Shown here piece by piece: positions 7,560 through 40,669 of a stretch of DNA of 64,000 nt. This DNA comes from Gammaproteobacteria bacterium (GTDB taxonomy: Bacteria > Pseudomonadota > Gammaproteobacteria > G965277405). Under the pieces are notes generated by a model. The model ran no database searches and was not told the origin of the DNA. It saw only the letters and a list, made by a program, of their open reading frames with translations. Positions within the stretch are counted from its first letter, which is position 1; every line of letters begins with the position of its first letter. A program made the position numbers and the translations under genes. The stretch lies in the NCBI GenBank assembly GCA_965277405.1, contig OZ255726.1:426280-490279 (forward strand), read 5' to 3'.

Positions 7560-8429
7560 ATGAGACGACTAAACGCCCACACAAGAATTAACTACCGCGA
7601 CCCTGGCGGATATCTGCTGCTGATTTTTTTTTCACTAATGTTAACGCTTGCTGACTATAGAACAACTTGGTTAGATTCCCCAAAACATATACTAGCCGCA
7701 ATAGCGACACCTTTTTATGATGGCGTTTTTTTTGTTGCTGCATTGTTTAATACCAGCGATAATTTTTTTTCTGACCATTTTGCATTGCGCGACGAACTTG
7801 AACAAGCACAATTAACAATTAGCGAGCTAGAAGTGCAACTATCATCAATAAAATCATTGCAGCAAGAAAACAATGAATTGCGAACGCTGATCAATGTAGA
7901 CTTGCGCAGCGAACAACAGCTCGTCATTGGTGAGTTAGTCAGCATCAATCAAGCTAATATTGCCAAGGAAGCTGTTATCAACCGTGGTACAAGTACTGGC
8001 ATCGCTGCAGGACATGCCATTATTAACGCGCAAGGGCTGCTTGGTCAAGTTGCCTCTATCAGCGCGGCATATAGCAAAATAATTTTGGTGAATGACATCC
8101 GTTTTGGCGTCCCTGTCGAAGTGCTTGGCAAAGGTATTCGCTTCAATCTTTTTGGCAAAGGCACGAATCTACTAGAAAGTGATGCTCTGAAGTATATGCG
8201 CGATATTGCCGTTGACGATTTATTAATAACCTCTGGTTTAGGCCATGTTTTTCCCCGCGGAATTGAAGTCGCCCTGGTAGTGCAAATACATACAAGCAGT
8301 GCAAGCAATGAAACCACAATACAAGCGCAACCTGTCGCAAAAGTCCATTCCAGCCCATATATTTATGCAGTGTTAGCCAAGCAAGTTGATGCCGAAATCA
8401 GCGCGCCTGGCGCTGATTCCTCACTGTGA
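7560..8429 (+). CDS. mreC: Rod shape-determining protein MreC
   Basis: 289 aa; N-terminal TM, coiled-coil (ELEQAQLTISELEVQL...ENNELR), then beta-rich domain with GLLGQV and FPRGIEVA motifs. Confidence 0.8.
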   Translation: MRRLNAHTRINYRDPGGYLLLIFFSLMLTLADYRTTWLDSPKHILAAIATPFYDGVFFVAALFNTSDNFFSDHFALRDELEQAQLTISELEVQLSSIKSLQQENNELRTLINVDLRSEQQLVIGELVSINQANIAKEAVINRGTSTGIAAGHAIINAQGLLGQVASISAAYSKIILVNDIRFGVPVEVLGKGIRFNLFGKGTNLLESDALKYMRDIAVDDLLITSGLGHVFPRGIEVALVVQIHTSSASNETTIQAQPVAKVHSSPYIYAVLAKQVDAEISAPGADSSL

Positions 8430-8890
8430 TGATGCGTCAGTTACTATATGGAATAATTGGGGTGGCAGCACTGTTTCTAGAGATTGTATATTGTCACTTT
8501 TTTTCTTCGTATCAAGTGCAAATTTTCTTTGTGGCGTTGCTATTGATGCATGACAATACCTGCCCAATTCATCCCATAGTAGTAGCCGCATTGTGCTTAT
8601 TATATGATTCGAGTAGGGTTGCGATATTAGGTAGTAGCTTACTTACTTGCAGCATTATTCTTTACATCACCACGGTATTGTATAATGCCAACTTATTGCA
8701 AAGATCGTTTGCGCAATTTAATGTGGTATTCTGCATAGTAATAGCGTTTATACTTGCCAATCAAAGCATAACTTTGGGGCTAGCGTCTATTGTCGATCAA
8801 CCGATAATCCCAATGCTTATTAACGCATCCATCAGCACGTTGCTATGGTATATATGCGCTAGCATTATGCGTATTGTAGCGCTATATTAA
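8426..8890 (+). CDS. mreD: Rod shape-determining protein MreD (putative)
   Basis: 154 aa polytopic hydrophobic protein, start overlaps mreC stop by 4 nt; identity rests on position and hydropathy. Confidence 0.55.
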   Translation: MMMRQLLYGIIGVAALFLEIVYCHFFSSYQVQIFFVALLLMHDNTCPIHPIVVAALCLLYDSSRVAILGSSLLTCSIILYITTVLYNANLLQRSFAQFNVVFCIVIAFILANQSITLGLASIVDQPIIPMLINASISTLLWYICASIMRIVALY

Positions 8891-9514
8891 CGCTGACAGT
8901 GTTGCGAAGAACTTCGCGATTTTATTGCTGTCTTTAACACCTTTTGCTGCCTCTACGCCGCTGCTAACATCGAGTGCGTAAGGCTGCGTTGTCACAATCG
9001 ATTCGGCAACAATATCTGCGTTAATCCCACCAGCAAGCACCAACAACTTGTTGCGATCAGGCGGAATAACAGACCAATTTGCCTGCCTGCCCGTGCCGCC
9101 ACGTTCGACTGGCGCGTAGGCATCAACGAGTAAAGCAGCCGCGCTTTGATATTGTTGCTCGGCAATATTCCAGTCATCTAGGTGATGCAGGCTGACGCCT
9201 TTAAAATAACGCATCTTGAACTGTTGGCAAAAATCTTCAGTTTCATCACCATGAAACTGCAATGTATCAATAGCGTGGCTTTGTATTGCTGCTTTGACTT
9301 GGGCAACACTTGGGTTCACGAAGACCCCGACTGTGCTTATAAATGGCGGTATATTCCGCGTAATAAGCGCTGCTTGCTGTGCTGGAATATAGCGTGCGCT
9401 TGATTCCCACAAAACATAGCCAATGGCATCAGCTCCATGGCTAACGGCCAACTGCGCATCTGCAAGCGAGGTTATCCCGCAGATTTTAACCTTTGGTAGT
9501 CGCCGCAGCTTCAC
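8882..9514 (-). CDS. trpF: Phosphoribosylanthranilate isomerase
   Basis: 210 aa; KVKICGIT, QFHGDE, LAGGIN motifs. Confidence 0.8.
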   Translation of the reverse strand: MKLRRLPKVKICGITSLADAQLAVSHGADAIGYVLWESSARYIPAQQAALITRNIPPFISTVGVFVNPSVAQVKAAIQSHAIDTLQFHGDETEDFCQQFKMRYFKGVSLHHLDDWNIAEQQYQSAAALLVDAYAPVERGGTGRQANWSVIPPDRNKLLVLAGGINADIVAESIVTTQPYALDVSSGVEAAKGVKDSNKIAKFFATLSALI

Positions 9515-10293
9515 GTACGAATACCGACACCGCGTTCAACTAGGAGCGTTGCTGTACAGAAAAATAGTATTGAAAACACAAACAAGATGGCAAAAGCAAA
9601 ATTCAAATCAACGTCAGTAATTCCTAAAAACCCATAGCGAAAACCGTTGACTAAATACAATATTGGGTTTGCGTATGATAGGTTGCGAAAAAACTCAGGG
9701 AGTAAATCGATTGAATAAAACACCCCACCCAGATACGTCAATGGTGTTAGTACAAATGTCGGTATGATTGACACATCATCAAATGTCCGGGCAAAAATCG
9801 CGTTAATTAACCCTGCCAGCGAAAACAACAACGAAGTCATCACGATAAACACGATTGTCACCACGACACTATGAATGTGGATGTTTGTAAAAAACAATGA
9901 AACGCCAGTCACTATTAACGCCACGCTCAGACCACGCAACATTCCACCAGTACAATAGCCAATAACTATGATATAGCTTGGGGTTGGAGATACCAGCAAC
10001 TCTTCGTGTGAACGCTGAAATTTTGCTCCAAAAAATGACGAGACGACATTCATATACGAGTTGGTGATTACTGCCAGCATAATCAACCCAGGGATAATAT
10101 ACTCGATATAAGTGACCCCAGCCATGCCACCAATTCGCGGCCCAATCAACTTACCAAAAATCAAAAAATACAACACCATCGTAATGGCTGGTGGCAGCAG
10201 TGTTTGCAGCCAAATACGGGTAATACGTTGAAATTCTTTACGACATATCGTAGCTAAGCTGCGCCAAGCTTGCTGGGTTCTTGTTGGGGTCAT
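9511..10293 (-). CDS. ABC-2 type transporter permease
   Basis: 260 aa, six predicted TM segments, overlaps upstream ATPase gene by 4 nt. Confidence 0.75.
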   Translation of the reverse strand: MTPTRTQQAWRSLATICRKEFQRITRIWLQTLLPPAITMVLYFLIFGKLIGPRIGGMAGVTYIEYIIPGLIMLAVITNSYMNVVSSFFGAKFQRSHEELLVSPTPSYIIVIGYCTGGMLRGLSVALIVTGVSLFFTNIHIHSVVVTIVFIVMTSLLFSLAGLINAIFARTFDDVSIIPTFVLTPLTYLGGVFYSIDLLPEFFRNLSYANPILYLVNGFRYGFLGITDVDLNFAFAILFVFSILFFCTATLLVERGVGIRT

Positions 10294-28681: not shown

Positions 28682-28905
28682 TTTTCGCATACAATCCTTG
28701 GTAACATAGACCGCGGCTTGCAATTGTTTTGCAATCGTTTTGCAATCGTTAGTGCGGCACATTATGTTTTGCGGCGAGTAAGCGCAGCTGTCGCTATCCT
28801 TGTCGCTATCCTTGAGGAGGAACAATATTGCATACAAAAAAACCTTGGCGTTTTTCTGTAAGTAGCTATAATAGCTACCTTAACTTTAATTTCATAGGTA
28901 TGAAC

Positions 28906-29193
28906 ATGAAGACTATCTCATCAAGAGATGCCCAAAACGCATTCGGTCACTTTCTGGATACAGTACAGCGTGAGCCAGTAATCGTGACTAAAAGGAACCG
29001 CCCTGTTGGAGTTATGTTGTCTATGGAAAACCTGCCAGCAATCTTTGAGCTTGCTGATAGTTTGAGAGAGACCATCAAAGCTGGTGTAAAGTCTGGGCTG
29101 GCAGATGCCAAAGCTGGCAAAGGCACAGCGCTTACCGCTGATTACATTGCTGATTTAAAGCAGGAGTTGCAAGCGAGAATAAATACCAGATAA
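28906..29193 (+). CDS. Type II antitoxin, Phd/YefM-like N-terminus with ParD-like C-terminal tail
   Basis: MKTISSRDAQNAFGHFLDTVQREPVIVTKRNRPVGVMLSMENL; start chosen at ATG 28906 (AGGT 6 nt upstream); alternative TTG at 28828 behind GAGGAGG noted. Confidence 0.75.
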   Translation: MKTISSRDAQNAFGHFLDTVQREPVIVTKRNRPVGVMLSMENLPAIFELADSLRETIKAGVKSGLADAKAGKGTALTADYIADLKQELQARINTR

Positions 29194-29202
29194 AAAGAAC
29201 GA

Positions 29203-29520
29203 ATGCAGCATTATCGTATCCAAATTATGCCTACTGCCAGCAAAGGGTTACTTGAAATTGGTGAGTATATTGCTGTGGATAACCCTGTCAGGGCGGTAAC
29301 GTTTGTTGTCGAAATAACCAATTCACTGCAAAAAACTCTATCGTTGTTTCCTCTTTCAGGAAAAGTTGCCGCAGACTTGGAAATGGATGAAGAAATTAGA
29401 ATATTGCCTCACGGTAATTACATTAGCTATTATCGTGTTGTAGCGCACAAACAGCTGGTAGAAGTCTTGTATGTGTTTAATGCCAGTCGTGATATTCAAG
29501 CGCTTATGACACAACTATAG
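29203..29520 (+). CDS. Type II toxin, RelE/ParE family
   Basis: 105 aa; typical RelE/ParE size and pattern (YRIQI...EEIRILPHGNYISYYRVVAHKQLVEVLYVFNASRD), 9 nt downstream of antitoxin. Confidence 0.8.
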   Translation: MQHYRIQIMPTASKGLLEIGEYIAVDNPVRAVTFVVEITNSLQKTLSLFPLSGKVAADLEMDEEIRILPHGNYISYYRVVAHKQLVEVLYVFNASRDIQALMTQL

Positions 29521-29814: not shown

Positions 29815-29888
29815 AATACGGCATGCGCCTTGCAATCATCAGCAATTGCAGGCAAACTCGCTCCATCAGCGAGTTAATCAGAGCTTCC
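29815..29888. mobile_element. MITE-like element, terminal fragment
   Basis: GCGCCTTGCAATCATCAGCAATTGCAGGCAAACTCGCTCCATCAGCGAGTTAATCAGAGCTTCC, about 70 bp downstream of hsdR 3' end. Confidence 0.55.
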
Positions 29889-29960
29889 ATAGCTTAATTT
29901 TAAACAAATATACAATAATCACCCCGCACTTTTATGGTTGAGTTAATTTTTAAGCAATTC

Positions 29961-32816
29961 CTAGCCACCCATTCCATTGATAAAAGTCTCTACAAAATTT
30001 ACTGTTTTATTTAAAATCCTATCTCCAACAGCTTTACGGTTTAAAATATTAGGCTTAACACCTTCTATTAAATCTAATAAGTCATCACGTAATGGCTCTC
30101 TTTCTGCATACAGATAATCTTCAATGAGCTTTTGTGTTTTTTCTGATGATAAATTTTCTTCTTTTACAAATACTGCAAATGCCTTTTGCTGTTCTTCTGC
30201 CCAGAATTTATCAAACTCTTGTGGTATAGTTGCAGAATCTGCTATCGCAGGTAAATTATCTTCTATAAACTTTTCTATCAACTCTCTTTTACTTCTTAAA
30301 TTAGCTTCTCCAGTTAATAAATCTACAACCTCTTTACGCTTTGCTTCTCGTTCTGATTTTTTAACATCTTTTAAAGTTGCCAATAGTTTTAAAATATATG
30401 TAACATTAATTTCGTCTCTATGAATCAATTCTAATTCAAAATCTACATCATCGAGTATAGACACTTTTTCTTTGGCAGTATCGAGTTTTGTCTTTTGCCA
30501 TAAATCCAGATACTTGCTGCTGTAATCGTTAAACAACTGCTCTTGCATTGCCAAATTTTCCCAATTGAAATCAGCAAAAGTTGTCATTACGTTTTTTATA
30601 CGCATCAGCTCTCTAAAAGCTCGGATAAATTCTAATTCGTCTGCTTCACTCAGCAAATCATCAACACTATTTACAGTTGGTGCTATTTTTAATAAGTTTA
30701 CAAACGCCTCATTGAATTTTTGCGTATATTCTTCTTGCGGCTTCATTATAACAACATCTATAGCTTCTTTGTTACCAAAGAGTGTTATCGCTTGATCTGT
30801 CGCTTTTTTAAGATTGCGAAACACTACGATATTACCTTGAGATTTCTGCTCGTTGACAATTCTATTTGTCCGTGAGTACGCTTGTATTAAACCGTGATAT
30901 TTTAAATTTTTATCTACGTATAAGGTGTTTAATGACGGACTGTCGAAACCTGTTAAGAACATATTTACCACTAATAAAATATCTATTTTTTGCTCTTTTA
31001 CTTTCTTCGATATATCGTTGTAATAATTATAAAATGATTGGCTATCTTTTGTTGAAAAATTAGAGCCAAACATTTCGTTATAATGCCCTATATAACTGGC
31101 TAACTTATCTCTTTTATGTATATTTAAACCGTATAAGGCTGGCGATTCTGCTACTACCGATACCTCTTCTGGAATATATCCGTTGGCATCTGCATCTTCT
31201 TCGTTGGCTACATAACTAAATATGGTTGCTATTGTTAGATTGTGTGTGCCTTCTTCTTTTTTACGCTGTAGAATATCATAATAATTTACCAACATATCTG
31301 TACCACCGACACAAAACATTGCTGTAAATTCTCTGTTATGCGTTTTGCGGTTGTGATTTGCAATAATATAATCTACTATCTTTTCTAAGCGCTTTGATGA
31401 TTCCATTAACTCTTTACGGTCTATGTCCTCTACTTCAATATCTATTGCTGTAGCAGATTTTTTTTGTTGGTATTTGCCGACATATTCTACTGCAAATTTT
31501 AGTACGTTTTCATCTTGTATAGCATCTGTAATAACGTATTTATGCAAGCAGTTGCCAAACAATTCTTTAGTAGTGCGTTTGCCTAATTCGTTTTTAACTG
31601 CATTGTCTGCAAATATTGGCGTTCCTGTAAAACCAAACATTTGGTAATTGTTAAAAAATTCTTTGATACGCCTATGTGTTTCCCCAAATTGACTGCGATG
31701 GCACTCATCAAAAATAAAGACAATACGCTCATCTTTTAGTTGTTCCATTTTAGCTAAATAGCTCTTGTTACTAATAGCTGTATTTAGCTTTTGAATGGTG
31801 GTTACAATAATTTTGGTGTCATCACTAAATTGTTTTACCAATGCTTTGGTATTGTCTGTACCATCTATACTACCCTTAGAGAAACTATTAAATTCTCTGG
31901 TAGTTTGGTAATCTAAATCTTTTCTATCAACCACAAATGCCACTTTTTGAATCTCTGGCATTTTCATAATAATTTGACTTGCCTTAAATGATGTTAGCGT
32001 TTTTCCTGAGCCTGTGGTATGCCATATATAACCGTTGTGTGTACTATTATTTACCTTGTCAATAATGCTTTCTACTGCATAGTATTGATACGGTCTAAGC
32101 ACCATTAATATTTTATGGGTTTCGTTTAACACAATGTACTTACATATCATTTTAGAGATATGACAAGGTTCTAAAAACTCATTTGCAAACCCATTGAGAA
32201 TATTAGTTACACGCTTGTTTTCTTTATTTGTCCAATAGAATGTCTGCTTAAAAGATTGACGCTTATTGTTTGCATAGTATTTGGTATTTACACCGTTGCT
32301 AATTACAAATATCTGTACATATTGAAACAAAGCCGATTTGGCTGCGAACGAATGGCTTTGATAACGGTTTATTTGCTTAAAAGCTTCTTTTATTTCCAAG
32401 CCTCTACGTTTTAATTCTATTTGCACTAGGGGTAGGCCATTTACTAATAAGCTAAGGTCGTAACGGTTTTTATAACTCCCCTCTATAGTTACTTGACTAG
32501 TAACTTGATATTGATTTTGACACCAATGCTCGGTATTTAGAAACTCAAAATATAAGTTATCGCCATTATCTCTGACAATATGTTGTTTTTCTCTCAGGGT
32601 TTTAGCTTTTTCAAATACAGAGCCTTTAGTTAGTATATTGAGTACACGGTCAAATTCTTTAGCAGTAAACATAATATTGTTATTATGTTTTTCTAACTGT
32701 GTTTTTAGGTTCGCTAATAAGGAGGCTTCATTGGGGATACTTACTTTGGTATAACCAATGTTTGTCAACTGTTGTATTAACTGTTTTTCTAATATTTGTT
32801 CTGTTTGTGTATTCAT
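29961..32816 (-). CDS. hsdR: Type I restriction enzyme R subunit
   Basis: 951 aa; helicase motifs (HTTGSGKT, FIFDECHRSQFG) and overall HsdR layout; last gene of RM operon. Confidence 0.9.
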   Translation of the reverse strand: MNTQTEQILEKQLIQQLTNIGYTKVSIPNEASLLANLKTQLEKHNNNIMFTAKEFDRVLNILTKGSVFEKAKTLREKQHIVRDNGDNLYFEFLNTEHWCQNQYQVTSQVTIEGSYKNRYDLSLLVNGLPLVQIELKRRGLEIKEAFKQINRYQSHSFAAKSALFQYVQIFVISNGVNTKYYANNKRQSFKQTFYWTNKENKRVTNILNGFANEFLEPCHISKMICKYIVLNETHKILMVLRPYQYYAVESIIDKVNNSTHNGYIWHTTGSGKTLTSFKASQIIMKMPEIQKVAFVVDRKDLDYQTTREFNSFSKGSIDGTDNTKALVKQFSDDTKIIVTTIQKLNTAISNKSYLAKMEQLKDERIVFIFDECHRSQFGETHRRIKEFFNNYQMFGFTGTPIFADNAVKNELGKRTTKELFGNCLHKYVITDAIQDENVLKFAVEYVGKYQQKKSATAIDIEVEDIDRKELMESSKRLEKIVDYIIANHNRKTHNREFTAMFCVGGTDMLVNYYDILQRKKEEGTHNLTIATIFSYVANEEDADANGYIPEEVSVVAESPALYGLNIHKRDKLASYIGHYNEMFGSNFSTKDSQSFYNYYNDISKKVKEQKIDILLVVNMFLTGFDSPSLNTLYVDKNLKYHGLIQAYSRTNRIVNEQKSQGNIVVFRNLKKATDQAITLFGNKEAIDVVIMKPQEEYTQKFNEAFVNLLKIAPTVNSVDDLLSEADELEFIRAFRELMRIKNVMTTFADFNWENLAMQEQLFNDYSSKYLDLWQKTKLDTAKEKVSILDDVDFELELIHRDEINVTYILKLLATLKDVKKSEREAKRKEVVDLLTGEANLRSKRELIEKFIEDNLPAIADSATIPQEFDKFWAEEQQKAFAVFVKEENLSSEKTQKLIEDYLYAEREPLRDDLLDLIEGVKPNILNRKAVGDRILNKTVNFVETFINGMGG

Positions 32817-32860
32817 TTGTTCTATTAAAATATGCCTAAGGAAAGATATCCTCTATTATT

Positions 32861-33765
32861 TTAATTTTCTGACCATAATGGATTTAATTCCCAATTATTT
32901 AGAAAACCTAATTTATATATAGGAACGTTTGGATTATTTCTAATAAGTTCAATAATTTTATCTTTGATATGAAGATCAGGAGCAACTTCGTTTGAAAGAT
33001 AAACTAATGTTGAAATAATTAAAAAAGGTTTCTTTTTTTGCACTTCAGTTATTGGTGAATTTAACCAATCATACATTGGGTTTATAATGTTATCAGTTGG
33101 TCTAATAGCCATACTTCTGCTCCAAAGTCTTGAATGGTGAGCAATAATATTTCTTACATAAACTATCGCCCCTAACCAACTTGAAAGTTCACTATGAAGG
33201 TGTAATCCCATTTCTTTCGCTATTTGCGTCTTTTCTGGAAGCTGGTGTTTAATGTTTTTGTATAATTTAGAAAGACTACCCATTGAGACAACCTCTAAAG
33301 TCTTCCAAGACTCAGCATCAATCTTAGGATACTTTCTTTTATGGTCTCTTATAAAAATTTCACTACTTCTATTAAATTCCTTATTCATGATTGCAACAGA
33401 AGATAAGTGATGGTTTGTATTTGTAAAAAATGAAACGTTTAAATGCCATAAAGCATCATATCGTAAAGACATATGATAAATCATTTTTGTTCTTAATGCT
33501 ATTTCTATTCTTTCTATAGCATCAAATAAGATTAGTTTTAAATGCCTATCAAAATTATAGCGCTCAATTACAGTTTCAAAATAAGTGTTTGGGTGAAATT
33601 TATGTTGTACAAAATCACATTGCATATCCCACCAATAGCTTTTAATCGATAATAACTTATTGTGGATAAAAAATGAGTTGCAGAAACCTCATCTTTAAAC
33701 AGCATATCTCTGTCCTTGAGTTGCTGTAATTGTTGTGCTATGCTAAGCGTTGGTTTAGAAGTCAT
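32861..33765 (-). pseudogene. Abi_2 (AbiD/AbiF-like) abortive-infection gene, interrupted by a 1-nt frameshift
   Basis: ORFs 33568..33765 and 32861..33625 overlap in different frames; N-terminal part ends ISYYRLKA, second part resumes YWWDMQ; shift maps to A4 tract (plus-strand T4 at 33640-33643). Confidence 0.65.
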
Positions 33766-33893
33766 AGCTTAAATAAAATGACCCGAGTGCAGTTCTTATG
33801 GTATGCAACTCGGGTTCTGTTACTACAAAGCTACAAACTTTATACCAATTTTGACGACTTTCTACCAATTTTTACGAATTTTTAACATTTTCA

Positions 33894-35414
33894 CTATACC
33901 AACATCTGTTGTAATAAGCCTTTTTTATAGAATTTTGTATGTTCTATTTTTTTATTGGTCAATTCTATTTTTTTATCTATTGATGATAGGAAATTGGCGA
34001 TTTTTTGTTGTTCTCTGGGTAGTGGAACATTAAGATTCAAAGAAGCAAGTTGTTTATTATATAAATGAACAACAGAATTGCCTTGTGCTAATTTAGCTAT
34101 ATCCATTTTTTTACTGTTATTCAATAAATAAGATAGGAATACACCATTTAGTTTAGATTTAATTATGTTCAAATCTCCTCCTAAAATCACACCCTTTTTC
34201 AAAACACAAGAAGCTGTGGCAATATCTAACCGTGTTTCACCTGAAGAAGGTATAATAACATCATTTTCTTCACTTAATACAGAGTCCCTTAAAGGAACAT
34301 TTGTTTTATAAATTATTGAATTAATTACTTCATTGTATGTCGTGTAAAGTTCTCCATAACGAATACATTCATTTACACCATCACTGACAATATCACTTTT
34401 TGAAACTCCTTTACCTTTTAAAAATTTCGCAATATTTCCCAACTTCTTCTCCTCCCATTCCCCTTCAAACTCATTCCCATTATCATCTTTAAACCTCAAC
34501 TCTTGTTTAAAGATTTTTTGCATTACCCCTTTTTTGTATTGCTCTAAAAGAGTTTTCTTTTTTTCTAAGGTTTTGACACGGTTATCTATGGCTGTTAGGA
34601 AATTGGCGATTTTTTGTTGTTCTTTTTTTTCGTTTGGAAAATAAACTTCCATTTGCCTTAGGTTGGTATTATATAGTCTTTTAATAATTCCACCATCAGA
34701 TGTTTGCCATCTTAGAGTTGAATAACAATAAAATAGAAAAGTATTTAGTATTTGTTGTTCATTATTTTCAAGCCAAACAATATTTGAATCCTGATAATAT
34801 GCATCCGAACCATCATATACTACTAATCTTCCAATAGTTCCAGATGCAGAAATAAGTATATCACCAATATTTGGAAACGAATACAGACTCTTATACTTTT
34901 TATATAAATCAATTGGAATATATGAATCAGAATCACTGCCAAATGTTCCAATTTTGTAAAAAGGGACAGAGTTATTTGACTCAGTCGTTGTTTGCTCTTT
35001 AAAAATCCTTTTACACATCAAAGGTCTTCCAATATTTCCTAATTTCTTCTCCTCCCATTCCCCTTTAAACTCAGGAAACCGCAATCGAGGAATATTCTTC
35101 TTTAAGGATATAGGAAAAGGAATTTTACACGTATTTATAATTTGTTTAAATGAGGTTGAAACCTCATTAATATCTATAATATCTACCTTGTACGGCAGCA
35201 AAGAATCATCTAAATCATCTCTTAAACTCGCCAATATCATTGGTGAAATAATAGTACTATGTTCCAAAGCAATATCCAAATCAGAATTGTATTTGGTTTG
35301 GTTTTTTGCCCTAGAGCCAAACACCCATACTTTACAATCTGTAGTAAGATGTTTTTGTAGAATATCTCTTATAATATAAAATTCCTTTGGGCTAATATCA
35401 AAATTAATCTTCAT
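33894..35414 (-). CDS. hsdS: Type I RM specificity subunit HsdS with in-frame N-terminal nucleotidyltransferase (MNT/HI0073-like) domain
   Basis: First ~105 aa: VWVFGSRAKNQTKYNSDLDIAL...YKVDIIDI (pol-beta NTase GSx10DxD); remainder two-TRD HsdS with duplicated EGEWEEKKLGNI and EQQKIANFL(T/S)(A/S)ID coiled-coil spacers; no stop or obvious internal start between modules. Confidence 0.8.
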   Translation of the reverse strand: MKINFDISPKEFYIIRDILQKHLTTDCKVWVFGSRAKNQTKYNSDLDIALEHSTIISPMILASLRDDLDDSLLPYKVDIIDINEVSTSFKQIINTCKIPFPISLKKNIPRLRFPEFKGEWEEKKLGNIGRPLMCKRIFKEQTTTESNNSVPFYKIGTFGSDSDSYIPIDLYKKYKSLYSFPNIGDILISASGTIGRLVVYDGSDAYYQDSNIVWLENNEQQILNTFLFYCYSTLRWQTSDGGIIKRLYNTNLRQMEVYFPNEKKEQQKIANFLTAIDNRVKTLEKKKTLLEQYKKGVMQKIFKQELRFKDDNGNEFEGEWEEKKLGNIAKFLKGKGVSKSDIVSDGVNECIRYGELYTTYNEVINSIIYKTNVPLRDSVLSEENDVIIPSSGETRLDIATASCVLKKGVILGGDLNIIKSKLNGVFLSYLLNNSKKMDIAKLAQGNSVVHLYNKQLASLNLNVPLPREQQKIANFLSSIDKKIELTNKKIEHTKFYKKGLLQQMLV

Positions 35415-35835
35415 AAAAAGTTTTTAGCTTTTGTAAAAAATATTCAGCCTCTGATAAAAAAGCAGGAATTTCTGCCACAATATCTATCGCAATATTTTCG
35501 TTATAACTATTAGAAGTTGTGTTGCTATTTTGCCTGTACACAGCCCATACATCCCAACTATGGAGTAAAATCCCTTTACTAAACCCCTCTCTTATAAGTT
35601 TTTGAAAAGAATATTCTTTAATTTCACTTGGGGTTTCTGGAATATTAGCAAGGTGTCTTCTCAGCATTTTGGTAGTTAATTCATAAGAATACTCAAAACG
35701 CTTAATACAAGCATCTCTAATATATTCACTATAACTATTTTTATTGCTGTGAAAATAAGATAACGCTTTTTTAAAACTTTCTAAAGCGTTTTCTAAGGAA
35801 CTTATATCTAATTTTTCATTAAAATTATTATTCAT
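35404..35835 (-). CDS. HI0074-type nucleotidyltransferase substrate-binding protein (HEPN-clan four-helix bundle)
   Basis: 143 aa; CIKRFEYSYELTTKMLRRHL resembles conserved core of NTase_sub_bind family; stop overlaps NTase-HsdS start by 11 nt; sits 4 nt after hsdM stop. Confidence 0.65.
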   Translation of the reverse strand: MNNNFNEKLDISSLENALESFKKALSYFHSNKNSYSEYIRDACIKRFEYSYELTTKMLRRHLANIPETPSEIKEYSFQKLIREGFSKGILLHSWDVWAVYRQNSNTTSNSYNENIAIDIVAEIPAFLSEAEYFLQKLKTFYED

Positions 35836-35838
35836 ATT

Positions 35839-37494
35839 CTAAAATGGTGTCTCAATACCTAATTCTTTACAAAAAGAAGCAATAATATCGTCTGTTTTCT
35901 TTAAATTTAAATCTAATATTTGTATTTCTTTAGCAACTACCTTAATATTTACTTGCTCTTCTTCTGCAGAAGTATCGACATAACGAGGTATATTAAGGTT
36001 GTAATCGTTCTCAGCTATTTCATCTAAGGAGGCTGTATAGCTGTATTTGTCTTCAATTTTACGCCCCCTATATGTAGTTATTAATTTATCTATATGAGCT
36101 TGTCTTAAAACATTTTGGGTTTTTACCTTTTCAAAATGTTTGCTCGCATCAATAAATAAAATATTTTTAGGGTTTTCTCTACATTTTTTAAATACCAAAA
36201 TACAAGTAGGGATGCCTGTACCATAAAATATATTGGCAGGTAAACCAATAACAGCATCTAAATAATTTTTTTCTTCAATTAAATATTTACGGATATGAGC
36301 TTCGGCACCACCTCTAAATAACGCCCCATGTGGCAATACTAATGCCATACTGCCGTTATCGTCTAAATGATATACCATATGCTGTACAAAAGCAAAATCT
36401 GCCTTATTCCTCGGTGCTAATTTACCGTATTGGCTAAACCTATCGTCACTCATAAAGAGTTGGCTAGCACTCCACTTTGCAGAAAATGGCGGATTGGCTA
36501 CAATAGCCTCAAAACGCAGGTCTATATGTTGTGGGTGTTCTAAGGTATCTTCTTGCTTAATATCAAATTTGCGATAATGTAAATCGTGTAATATCATATT
36601 CATACGTGCTAAGTTGTAGGTAGTACGGTTGAGTTCTTGGCCGTAAAAGTTGTTTACGTTATTATCTACTTCTTTGGCTACACGTAATAGTAATGAACCG
36701 CTGCCACAACTTGGGTCATATACCGATTTTAGTTTTTTTTTTCCTGTGGTTACCAATTTAGCCAATACCATGCTTACCTGTTGCGGTGTATAAAATTCGC
36801 CTGCTTTTTTACCTGCTCCACTGGCAAATTTGCCAATTAGATATTCATAGGCATCGCCCAATACATCTGATTCGGTTTGTTCTAATTTAAAATCAATTTT
36901 ACTTAAATGTGCGAGTACTTTAGCAATAATTTCATTACGCGCCGCTGGTGTTTTACCTAATTTGGTGGAGTTTAAATCCATATCCTCAAAGAGGTTGTCA
37001 AAATCTTCTTCACTATCCGTACCCATTGTACTGTTTTGGACGTTGATGAGGATTTTTTGTAAATCTTCTAGTATAAAATTATGCTTGGTATGGTAGGTTG
37101 CTGTCGTGTCTTTTGTTATATTATTACTTTCTTTAATACCTTCATTGTGATTGCCGCGTTTTGCGACAGCAGAAAATAATTCTGACGGTTTTAAGAAGTA
37201 TCCTAATCCCCCCCCTACTAAAGAGTTTTCGCTTATTGCTTTGATATATTTTTTTCCTGTTTCTGTATTTTCGTCTATAGCGGCAAACAAAAATGTATCG
37301 CCTCCTTCTTTAATAATTTTATTAGCATATATTTCCATTTTTTCGGATAAGTATTTATAGAAAATAAAGCCTAATATATAATCACGAAACTCATCTGCAT
37401 TCATTTTACCCCTAAGGGTATTGGCAATATTCCAAAGTTGTTGTTCTAATTGTTTTTTATAGTCTTCTGACATTGTGGGTCTCAATTGTTGCAA
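35839..37494 (-). CDS. hsdM: Type I RM N6-adenine DNA methyltransferase subunit
   Basis: 551 aa; catalytic NPPF motif (IVANPPFSAKW), AdoMet-binding region DPSCGSGSLL. Confidence 0.9.
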   Translation of the reverse strand: MQQLRPTMSEDYKKQLEQQLWNIANTLRGKMNADEFRDYILGFIFYKYLSEKMEIYANKIIKEGGDTFLFAAIDENTETGKKYIKAISENSLVGGGLGYFLKPSELFSAVAKRGNHNEGIKESNNITKDTTATYHTKHNFILEDLQKILINVQNSTMGTDSEEDFDNLFEDMDLNSTKLGKTPAARNEIIAKVLAHLSKIDFKLEQTESDVLGDAYEYLIGKFASGAGKKAGEFYTPQQVSMVLAKLVTTGKKKLKSVYDPSCGSGSLLLRVAKEVDNNVNNFYGQELNRTTYNLARMNMILHDLHYRKFDIKQEDTLEHPQHIDLRFEAIVANPPFSAKWSASQLFMSDDRFSQYGKLAPRNKADFAFVQHMVYHLDDNGSMALVLPHGALFRGGAEAHIRKYLIEEKNYLDAVIGLPANIFYGTGIPTCILVFKKCRENPKNILFIDASKHFEKVKTQNVLRQAHIDKLITTYRGRKIEDKYSYTASLDEIAENDYNLNIPRYVDTSAEEEQVNIKVVAKEIQILDLNLKKTDDIIASFCKELGIETPF

Positions 37495-37580: not shown

Positions 37581-37869
37581 GGAAGCTCTGATGAAGCCCA
37601 TGATGGGCGAGACGGAGAAAAAACGCTGCTGATAACTAGCCGCAGTGCGCAGATAATACTGGTGGTCTTGTGGGTGCTGCCAAGTGCTGCAACGACGTTA
37701 GCGTAGTGTTTTTTCCCGTCCTGCTGTTGAATATACTTTGGGTTTGCGGCAGCGGTACTTGTGCTGTGCTGCATCCCTTGGCGTATATGCTACGGCATGC
37801 GGTTTGCGCCTTGCAATCATCAGTAATTGCCAGCAAACTCGCTCCATCAGCGAGTTAATCAGAGCTTCC
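37581..37869. mobile_element. MITE-like element, complete copy immediately upstream of the RM operon
   Basis: GGAAGCTCTGATGAAGCCC...GAGTTAATCAGAGCTTCC; followed by another TIR-like stub GGAATCTCTG. Confidence 0.7.
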
Positions 37870-39660: not shown

Positions 39661-39664
39661 CGAT

Positions 39665-39803
39665 TTGCGGCAATTGCGGTACTTCTGTGTAGCATCCTTT
39701 GGCGTATATGCTACGCCATGTGCTTAGCGGTTTGAGCCTGGCAATCATCAGCAATCGCAACAAGCTCACTCCAAATCGACTAAATTAAAGGTTCCTTAAA
39801 ATA
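39665..39803. mobile_element. MITE-like element, degenerate partial copy
   Basis: GCATCCTTTGGCGTATATGCTACG...GGCAATCATCAGCAATCGC resembles MITE core with substitutions. Confidence 0.4.
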
Positions 39804-40373: not shown

Positions 40374-40669
40374 GGAATCTCTGATTAACTCCATGATGGA
40401 TAAGACGGAGCAACAACGCTGACGATAACTGTGTTGTGCGCAGGTCACACTGGTGGGTCTTGTGGGTATTAGCAAGTGCTGCAACGACGTTAGTACCGCT
40501 TTTTTTCCGTATTAAGTTCAATAAACTTGTGGTTTGCGGCATTGCTTACGCTTGCTGTATTGCATCCGTTGGCGGATATGCTACGGCAGGCGCTTATGCG
40601 GTTTGCGCCTTGCAAATCATCAGCAATTGCCCGCAAACCCGTGGTATCAGCGAGTTAAGCTGCTGTTCC
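40374..40669. mobile_element. MITE-like element, diverged complete copy
   Basis: GGAATCTCTGATTAACTCC...GAGTTAAGCTGCTGTTCC with recognisable internal core. Confidence 0.55.

Follow-up and report, generated by a model that had tools for sequence, protein, structure and literature searches.

A HepT/MntA-type pair within a type I restriction-modification operon, with the nucleotidyltransferase joined to the specificity subunit HsdS

The window analyzed here, a stretch of 64,000 nucleotides (nt) from the genome of a Gammaproteobacteria bacterium (GenBank assembly GCA_965277405.1, contig OZ255726.1, positions 426,280 to 490,279 of the forward strand), contains a type I restriction-modification (R-M) operon in which a minimal nucleotidyltransferase (NTase, or MNT) of the MntA/HI0073 type is encoded in-frame with a complete specificity subunit, HsdS, as a single protein of 506 residues. 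The gene directly upstream encodes a 143-residue HEPN protein of the HepT/HI0074 type. HEPN/MNT pairs are considered one of the most abundant kinds of toxin-antitoxin system. We give about even chances to the reading that this is an EcoR124-like type I operon carrying a type VII HepT/MntA pair, with the antitoxin tethered to HsdS, and that the copy in the window is partly decayed. The window copy is degenerate, and the interest of the locus lies in the class of operons that it reveals, including a variant in which an NTase is joined to the restriction subunit, HsdR.

The initial annotation of the window had placed an HI0074/HI0073-type pair between hsdM and hsdR, with the NTase in-frame with a two-domain HsdS, and the coordinates of the open reading frames (ORFs) and the profile matches agree with both statements. 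Residues 15–93 of the 506-residue protein match Polbeta (1.9e-9), NTP_transf_2 (1.4e-4), and the MntA family NF047752 (1.4e-11), although the NF047752 score of 44 bits is under the equivalog cutoff of 60 for that family. The best solved relative of this domain is HI0073 (PDB 1NO5, 2.5e-12), with the Legionella pneumophila MNT second. Its catalytic residues are present as G33-S34-x10-D45-x-D47 (D45-L-D47) with a third aspartate, D78, and both the GSx10DxD motif and the third aspartate are invariant in all of the fusions that we aligned. The remainder of the protein contains two Methylase_S stretches (5.4e-37), the full-length type I specificity models of PADLOC span residues 105–506 (Specificity_I, 2.4e-93), and a repeat search of the window identified an internal repeat (family D3) at the start of each target recognition domain (TRD). 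The fusion is the sole hsdS of the operon and is encoded together with hsdM and hsdR (Table 1).

The window sequence reads from the NTase module into HsdS without a stop codon or frameshift. An internal start yielding free HsdS was considered and rejected, as the only in-frame methionine near the junction, M133, sits inside TRD1; the earlier statement that the frame has neither a stop nor a plausible internal start thus holds. The linker between the modules is the counterpart of the canonical N-terminal tail of HsdS (..NIPRLRFPEFKGEW), and the start of unfused HsdS homologs falls exactly at this linker (M..N[IV]PxLRFPEFxGEW), with the window having a leucine at the position of their start methionine. 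As unfused homologs start at the linker, the fusion looks like a simple read-through of mntA into an adjacent hsdS. In an AlphaFold2 (AF2) model of the whole protein (mean per-residue confidence, pLDDT, of 73), residues 8–100 adopt an alpha/beta NTase fold and are followed by a low-confidence linker (pLDDT <50 for residues 103–112), TRD1, a long helix (residues 263–302), TRD2, and a terminal helix (residues 466–505). The NTase thus forms a separate domain in the model, attached flexibly through the linker, which would make tethering structurally feasible.

The initial annotation had called for a search for homologous NTase::HsdS fusions and their neighborhoods, and this search returned them in large numbers. 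A HMMER search with the first 125 residues of the fusion gave 375 cluster representatives (50% identity) at E<=1e-10, and at least 93 of the best 150, which were the ones examined, are fusion-type proteins with both an NTase and Methylase_S: 65 match the HsdS part of the window protein by phmmer, and 28 further long proteins are Methylase_S by Pfam and represent a second HsdS family. A search with the protein of the whole ORF identified eight other proteins with 100% query coverage and the same architecture. When nine diverged fusions were aligned, the N-terminal domain and the linker were conserved and the TRDs were completely different, as is to be expected since specificity domains shuffle.

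In a scan of one genome per species, relatives of the NTase domain turned up in 163 genomes, and the best 80 loci, holding 86 NTase-domain ORFs, were analyzed. The NTase::HsdS fusion is present in 64 of these 80 species loci, in 62 of which hepT lies directly upstream, mostly with an overlap of 3–25 nt. Within 8 kb of the fusion, hsdM was identified in 63 and hsdR in 45 of the 64 loci, and the fused gene is nearly always the sole hsdS. The bacterial hosts belong to the Gamma-, Alpha-, and Betaproteobacteria, Campylobacterota, Bdellovibrionota, Bacteroidota, Spirochaetia, Nitrospinota, Chloroflexota/Dehalococcoidia, Acidobacteriota, and Latescibacterota; archaeal hosts are Nitrosopumilaceae, and two of the hosts, Marinobacterium ramblicola and Marinomonas arctica, are isolates. 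No locus near-identical to that of the window was present in the scan (best match 54%), and a plasmid collection contained just two stand-alone HI0073/HI0074 pairs and no fusion. Judged from these loci, the fusion is a widespread, conserved architecture and not peculiar to the window genome, and its conservation suggests that it is under selection. In one locus (L047) the order is hsdM-hepT-mntA-hsdS with the pair unfused; probably the embedded unfused pair came first and the fusion later, and the fusion probably arose more than once, as indicated by a neighbor-joining tree.

A second form of tethering was found in five of the loci (L009, L013, L017, L018, and L034), where hepT-NTase::hsdS is followed directly, in the same operon, by a second hepT and an NTase::HsdR fusion (Table 1). 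The NTase::HsdR proteins have 1045–1301 residues, the first ~110 of which match Polbeta/NTP_transf_2, followed by HSDR_N, SWI2_SNF2, T1R_D3, and EcoR124_C. Their NTase domains form a separate clade in the neighbor-joining tree, on which evidence the tethering to HsdR is independent of that to HsdS. Two R-M subunits have thus each gained an antitoxin domain, in either case from the HEPN protein's own partner, and this argues that tethering was selected rather than accidental.

Two loci were unusual in their surroundings. In a member of the Methylococcales (L003:6579-9416), hepT and NTase::hsdS occur with no hsdM or hsdR called nearby and adjoin a Y1 (IS200-type) transposase and a SNF2/SWIM pair, and this may be an orphan or relocated module. 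In L001 (10849-14065), two genes of the GmrSD family (type IV restriction) directly follow an operon with the order hsdR-hepT-NTase::hsdS-hsdM, which is a defense-island context.

The 143-residue protein is a bare HEPN domain without any further Pfam match. It matches PF08780 NTase_sub_bind (1.8e-25) and TIGR01987 HI0074 (2.9e-19; 69.3 bits relative to a cutoff of 55.8), so that both members of the pair are recognized by profiles of the families proposed for them, and its best solved relatives are HI0074 (PDB 1JOG, 8e-14), TTHA0048, and the L. pneumophila HEPN protein (8XDJ, 4e-6). In the initial annotation no Rx4-6H motif could be found in this protein, and the alignments explain why: the family loop reads R-N-x-T-S-H-x-Y-D-E, and that of the window S-N-T-T-S-N-S-Y-N-E, so that RNITSHTY of HI0074 is aligned with SNTTSNSY. 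At the positions of the R-x4-6-H-x-Y loop the window HepT has S104, T106, and N109, and only Tyr111, the equivalent of the AMP acceptor in homologs, is retained. An intact R(x4-6)HxY is present in 61 of the 62 tethered hepT genes.

Close relatives allow the loss to be followed. The HepT of L002, which is 92% identical to that of the window, has the loop RNKTSHSY, as does that of L085, and RNKTSH also occurs in the cluster members P0297/8; P0300 has an intermediate loop, SNKTSHSY, and the 99% identical HepT of L004 has the same SNTTSNSY as the window. Read as a series, these loops indicate stepwise change in which the arginine was lost first, and the lysine and histidine after. Relative to L002, each of the codon changes in the window is a single-base change (AGA>AGC, AAA>ACA, and CAT>AAT), and the six codons of the loop account for three of the 11 amino-acid differences (binomial P about 0.009). 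The ratio of nonsynonymous to synonymous substitution (dN/dS) is 0.60 for hepT vs. 0.18 for hsdR, which, being based on 15 substitutions, is suggestive only. By this comparison the loss of the motif is recent and lineage-specific, not a trait of the family, and the absence of the arginine and histidine amounts to loss of a strongly conserved function, though not by itself to a dead RNase. Other loop variants were seen in tethered or related HepT proteins, RDATSYGY in L006 (7607-8017; H>Y) and CNITSHAY in L079 (7576-7989; R>C), and loop-residue loss is therefore rare yet not unique to the window.

The operon lies on the minus strand in the order hsdM, hepT, NTase::hsdS, a frameshifted AbiD/Abi_2 gene, and hsdR. 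The start of hepT is 3 nt past the TAG stop of hsdM, and the hepT stop and the ATG of the fusion ORF overlap by 11 nt (ATGAAGATTAA). HsdR has an EcoR124_C-type C-terminal domain, and the operon is EcoR124-like, or type IC-like.

Table 1. Coordinates of the features discussed (window positions unless a locus is given).
Feature	Position	Strand	Evidence
hsdM, type I R-M methyltransferase subunit, 551 residues	35839..37494	(-)	TIGR00497 4.8e-132; N6_Mtase 7e-112; HsdM_N
hepT-like gene, HI0074/NTase_sub_bind family HEPN protein, 143 residues	35404..35835	(-)	PF08780, TIGR01987, PDB matches
Degenerate Y-loop motif of HepT, codons 104-111, SNTTSNSY	35503..35526	(-)	Alignments
NTase::HsdS ORF, 506 residues	33894..35414	(-)	Profile matches
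MntA/HI0073-type minimal nucleotidyltransferase domain, residues 1-100 of the 506-residue ORF	35115..35414	(-)	
Linker, residues 101-118 of the 506-residue ORF	35061..35114	(-)	pLDDT; start of unfused HsdS homologs
HsdS proper: TRD1, central coiled-coil helix, TRD2, C-terminal helix	33894..35060	(-)	
Abi_2/AbiD (HEPN-family) gene, split into 65-residue (33568-33765) and 254-residue (32861-33625) ORFs	32861..33765	(-)	PF07751 4.7e-44; PADLOC AbiD 4.7e-49
hsdR, type I restriction subunit, 951 residues	29961..32816	(-)	TIGR00348 6.4e-144; EcoR124_C 1.8e-64
73-nt direct repeat, one edge of the low-GC R-M island	29816..29888	(+)	
73-nt direct repeat, second copy, other island edge	37797..37869	(+)	
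Second hepT and NTase::HsdR	L009:10246-13784, L013:8781-12492, L017:10520-13732, L018:9511-13766, L034:9727-14053		

The GC content falls from 43–45% in the flanks to 30–33% between about 29.9 and 37.5 kb of the window. At the edges of this island are 73-nt direct repeats that are 92% identical and belong to a dispersed intergenic repeat family (D1), other members of which lie at 39664-39759 and 40534-40669; the bracketing of the island by these repeats suggests that they mark a site of insertion or recombination. Three loci from a single metagenome (L002, L004, and L085, all from ENA sample ERZ26859072) were compared with window positions 29941-37474, and their hsdM-hepT-NTase and hsdR cassettes are about 95–98% identical to those of the window. 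In L002 and L085 the cassette has ~95% nucleotide identity and is found at unrelated chromosomal sites with different TRDs, the L002 flanks being gldB/gldC-type and the L085 cassette adjoining a SNF2 helicase and a 2-oxoacid dehydrogenase, which indicates that, within one community, the cassette has recently spread horizontally and its TRDs have been shuffled. The syntenic locus, L004, comes from a genome about 98% identical to that of the window. In its region 8001-9640, hsdS is badly degraded, with a TRD1 region full of indels and a replaced TRD2, and the NTase ORF stops at 136 residues, the NTase domain itself being perfectly preserved. Conversely, AbiD is intact in L004 (293 residues), whereas in the window a 1-nt deletion near 33640 splits the gene, which could be a genuine pseudogene mutation or a sequencing indel; the window AbiD retains RNIIAH, an Rx4H motif. 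The sister genomes are therefore losing different accessory parts, AbiD in one and hsdS in the other. These comparisons suggest that the cassette was horizontally acquired and is decaying, and we consider the accessory toxins of the window, HepT and AbiD, to be partly disarmed. The R-M core of the window probably still works, as hsdM, NTase::hsdS, and hsdR are all intact. A PhdYeFM-antitoxin/ParE-toxin pair (window 28828-29520, plus strand) adjoins hsdR outside the low-GC island and is also found in L004.

What tethering might achieve can be proposed from stand-alone pairs. In these, HepT loses its RNase toxicity once MntA has AMPylated its loop tyrosine (PMC11586414 and PMC7641770). The NTase domain of the fusion is short and has no C-terminal alpha4 helix, as in the L. 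pneumophila HEPN-MNT pair (PDB 8XDJ/8XEH; PMC11586414), in which one MNT binds a HEPN tetramer through alpha2 and the alpha2-beta3 loop and AMPylates Y105. Docking of this type frees the C-terminus of the MNT and is therefore compatible with its continuation into HsdS. We propose that HepT, as a HEPN RNase, would be made just ahead of MntA::HsdS from overlapping, translationally coupled genes, and that the MntA domain borne by HsdS (or HsdR) would capture the HepT oligomer and, by analogy, AMPylate the tyrosine of its R-x4-H-x-Y loop. The silencing of HepT would then depend on how abundant and how intact the R-M complex is. If R-M subunits were lost, proteolyzed, or inhibited by a phage, the neutralizing activity would disappear and the RNase would be released, which might act as a second line of defense or as a penalty for loss of the operon. 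As to the purpose of the coupling, the leading option, again by analogy, is a PrrC-like back-up RNase, the main rival being addiction to the cassette. More tentatively, and with clearly more doubt than belief, we suggest that tethering of MntA to HsdS, and independently to HsdR, may define a class of "guarded" type I R-M systems, widespread in bacteria and archaea, in which HepT is parked on the complex and released upon inhibition of the R-M subunits by a phage or their degradation by the cell.

Several points weigh against this proposal. AMPylation, toxicity, and sequestration on the R-M complex are attributed to the tethered members by extrapolation from stand-alone homologs, and the trigger is likewise conjectural. 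Because the query for the genome census extended into the start of the HsdS tail, its ranking was biased slightly toward fusions, although the absolute numbers stand. Tethering is not obligatory, since the pair in L047 is genuinely unfused. Truncation of hsdS leaves the N-terminal antitoxin whole, as in the 136-residue ORF of L004, and the fusion consequently gives hsdS no protection from point decay. Lastly, that the window HepT is disarmed is unproven, because in the L. pneumophila HEPN protein, a member of the same Pfam family and the nearest homolog to have been characterized, the substitutions R98A and H103A leave the enzyme active.

This last point supports an alternative that we regard as unlikely but serious, namely that the window HepT is not disarmed at all but is a Mg2+-dependent RNase independent of the loop arginine and histidine, with the substitutions only retuning its regulation by the tethered NTase. 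The active site of the L. pneumophila HEPN protein is a Mg2+ site at Q44/E47; Q44A and E47A abolish both RNase activity and toxicity, R98A and H103A retain both, and Y105 of the loop is the AMP acceptor, the authors suggesting that the polar residues of the loop aid nucleotidyl transfer (PMC11586414). At the equivalent positions the window HepT has E48, which is invariant, for E47, and K45 for Q44, and a lysine is also found there in relatives with an intact RxnHxY motif. The window protein additionally keeps its acceptor Tyr111, its ORF is full length, and its motif is identical in two genomes. However, the retention of the arginine and histidine in all but one of the tethered loci with hepT means that these residues matter for something, and relaxed selection on the accessory toxins is indicated by the three loop changes in six codons and their stepwise series, by the frameshift in AbiD, and by the degradation of hsdS in the sister genome.

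A different role for the pair, to which we give a similarly low probability, is as an addiction module serving the R-M cassette as a mobile island: upon loss of the operon the labile tethered antitoxin would end and the cell would be poisoned. Type I R-M systems show weak post-segregational killing, and such a module would give them the hold that they otherwise want. The cassette does behave as a mobile unit, being a low-GC island between direct repeats and occurring in ~95% identical form at unrelated sites, with one metagenome supplying at least four such contigs (the window, L002, L004, and L085), and rapid degradation of isolated MNT domains has been reported (PMC13000451). Addiction would involve the same molecular machinery as guarding of the R-M complex, and sequence alone cannot tell the two apart. 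It would, however, require that AMPylated HepT be de-modified or outlive the antitoxin, and decay in the window lineage evidently went unprevented.

Much less probable is that the two proteins are no toxin-antitoxin pair, HI0074 instead being the substrate-binding subunit of a two-part nucleotidyltransferase carried on HsdS or HsdR, which would regulate or extend restriction by modifying some other target, for instance a phage protein, the ends of DNA, or one of the R-M subunits. The family name and the original structural-genomics proposal favor such a role, the catalytic residues of the NTase are invariant, and in proteins that combine HEPN and MNT domains the HEPN part is often non-catalytic and serves to bind the substrate (PMC3710099). 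Toxin and antitoxin roles have nevertheless been demonstrated for members of the same Pfam families, in which the HEPN tyrosine accepts the NMP (PMC11586414 and PMC7641770), and the RxnHxY loop is conserved, acceptor tyrosine included, in the tethered family. Finally, that the fusion is an artefact, through a stop or frameshift missed in the assembly or the local read-through of a pseudogene, could be entertained given that the related contigs come from indel-prone long-read metagenomes, that the window AbiD has a 1-nt indel, and that L037 is full of frameshifts, but it is effectively ruled out by an in-frame junction conserved across at least 64 species loci and dozens of protein clusters from independent assemblies, isolates among them.

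The initial annotation did not recognize the fusion as one previously described, and a full-text literature search supports this without being able to prove it: no description was found, although mention elsewhere is possible, and several apparent matches proved to concern MntABC transporters, E. coli strain genotypes, or heptose. Neither MNT::HsdS nor MNT::HsdR is mentioned in Makarova et al. 2013, a 2026 BREX survey, a 2026 paper on fused MNT-HEPN proteins (PMC13000451), or the Shewanella oneidensis papers, and neither was found in PMC3632139, PMC12839542, or PMC4621449. The searchable text of Anantharaman et al. (2013; PMC3710099) likewise has no mention of an MNT partner fused to HsdS or HsdR; that text does link 16 HEPN clades to R-M operons, proposing the PrrC analogy, and describes fusions of HEPN domains to R-M nucleases, helicases, and ATPases. 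Public annotation of the fusion proteins is solely "restriction endonuclease subunit S," and the fusion is of consequence for annotation as well. It appears that two known families, the type VII HepT/MntA pair and type I HsdS, are joined in an undescribed yet widespread way.

A HEPN back-up of R-M systems has long been proposed, and to our knowledge PrrC is almost its sole worked example. An antitoxin within HsdS or HsdR would be a concrete and testable link from the state of the R-M complex to release of the toxin, the trigger of HEPN/MNT systems being otherwise unclear. Natural variants are at hand for comparison, with the antitoxin fused to the S subunit, fused to the R subunit, or unfused, or with the pair disarmed, and some of these are in the cultured M. 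ramblicola and M. arctica.

Compared with known systems, the tethered pairs are closest to the type VII HepT/MntA modules, especially those of the HI0074/HI0073 class and the L. pneumophila HEPN-MNT pair, and also S. oneidensis SO_3166/SO_3165 (PMC7641770). They share with these the Pfam families (PF08780, and Polbeta/NTP_transf_2 with GSx10DxD), the hepT-first order with overlapping genes, and the RX4HXY loop with its acceptor tyrosine. They differ in that the antitoxin is a free protein of ~100 residues in the known modules and here the N-terminal domain of HsdS or, in some operons, HsdR, in that the tethered pair is always within a type I R-M operon, and, for the window, in a loop without the R, K, and H. 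In the fused MNT-HEPN protein FhepTA (PMC13000451) the MNT is also part of a larger polypeptide, an antitoxin turned regulatory domain. There, however, the MNT is fused to its own toxin, whereas here the toxin is separate and the fusion partner of the MNT is a subunit of another defense system. CapRel is another antitoxin-fusion sensor. Abi_2/AbiD and other HEPN genes in R-M operons, as treated in PMC3710099, represent the same theme, and the window operon has an AbiD as well. Most pertinent is PrrC-EcoprrI (and RloC), where, as reviewed in the same paper, a latent HEPN anticodon nuclease is curbed by a type IC R-M complex; here too the HEPN gene is inside a type I operon, and silencing through association with the R-M complex, as a second defense line, is by analogy plausible for tethered HepT. 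PrrC has an N-terminal ABC-ATPase regulatory domain, which the 143-residue HepT does not, and belongs to a different HEPN family, and PrrC is bound by the R-M complex directly, whereas here the link would be a covalently fused modifying enzyme. A guarded class, should it prove real, would thus parallel PrrC-EcoprrI in a modular and enzyme-mediated form.

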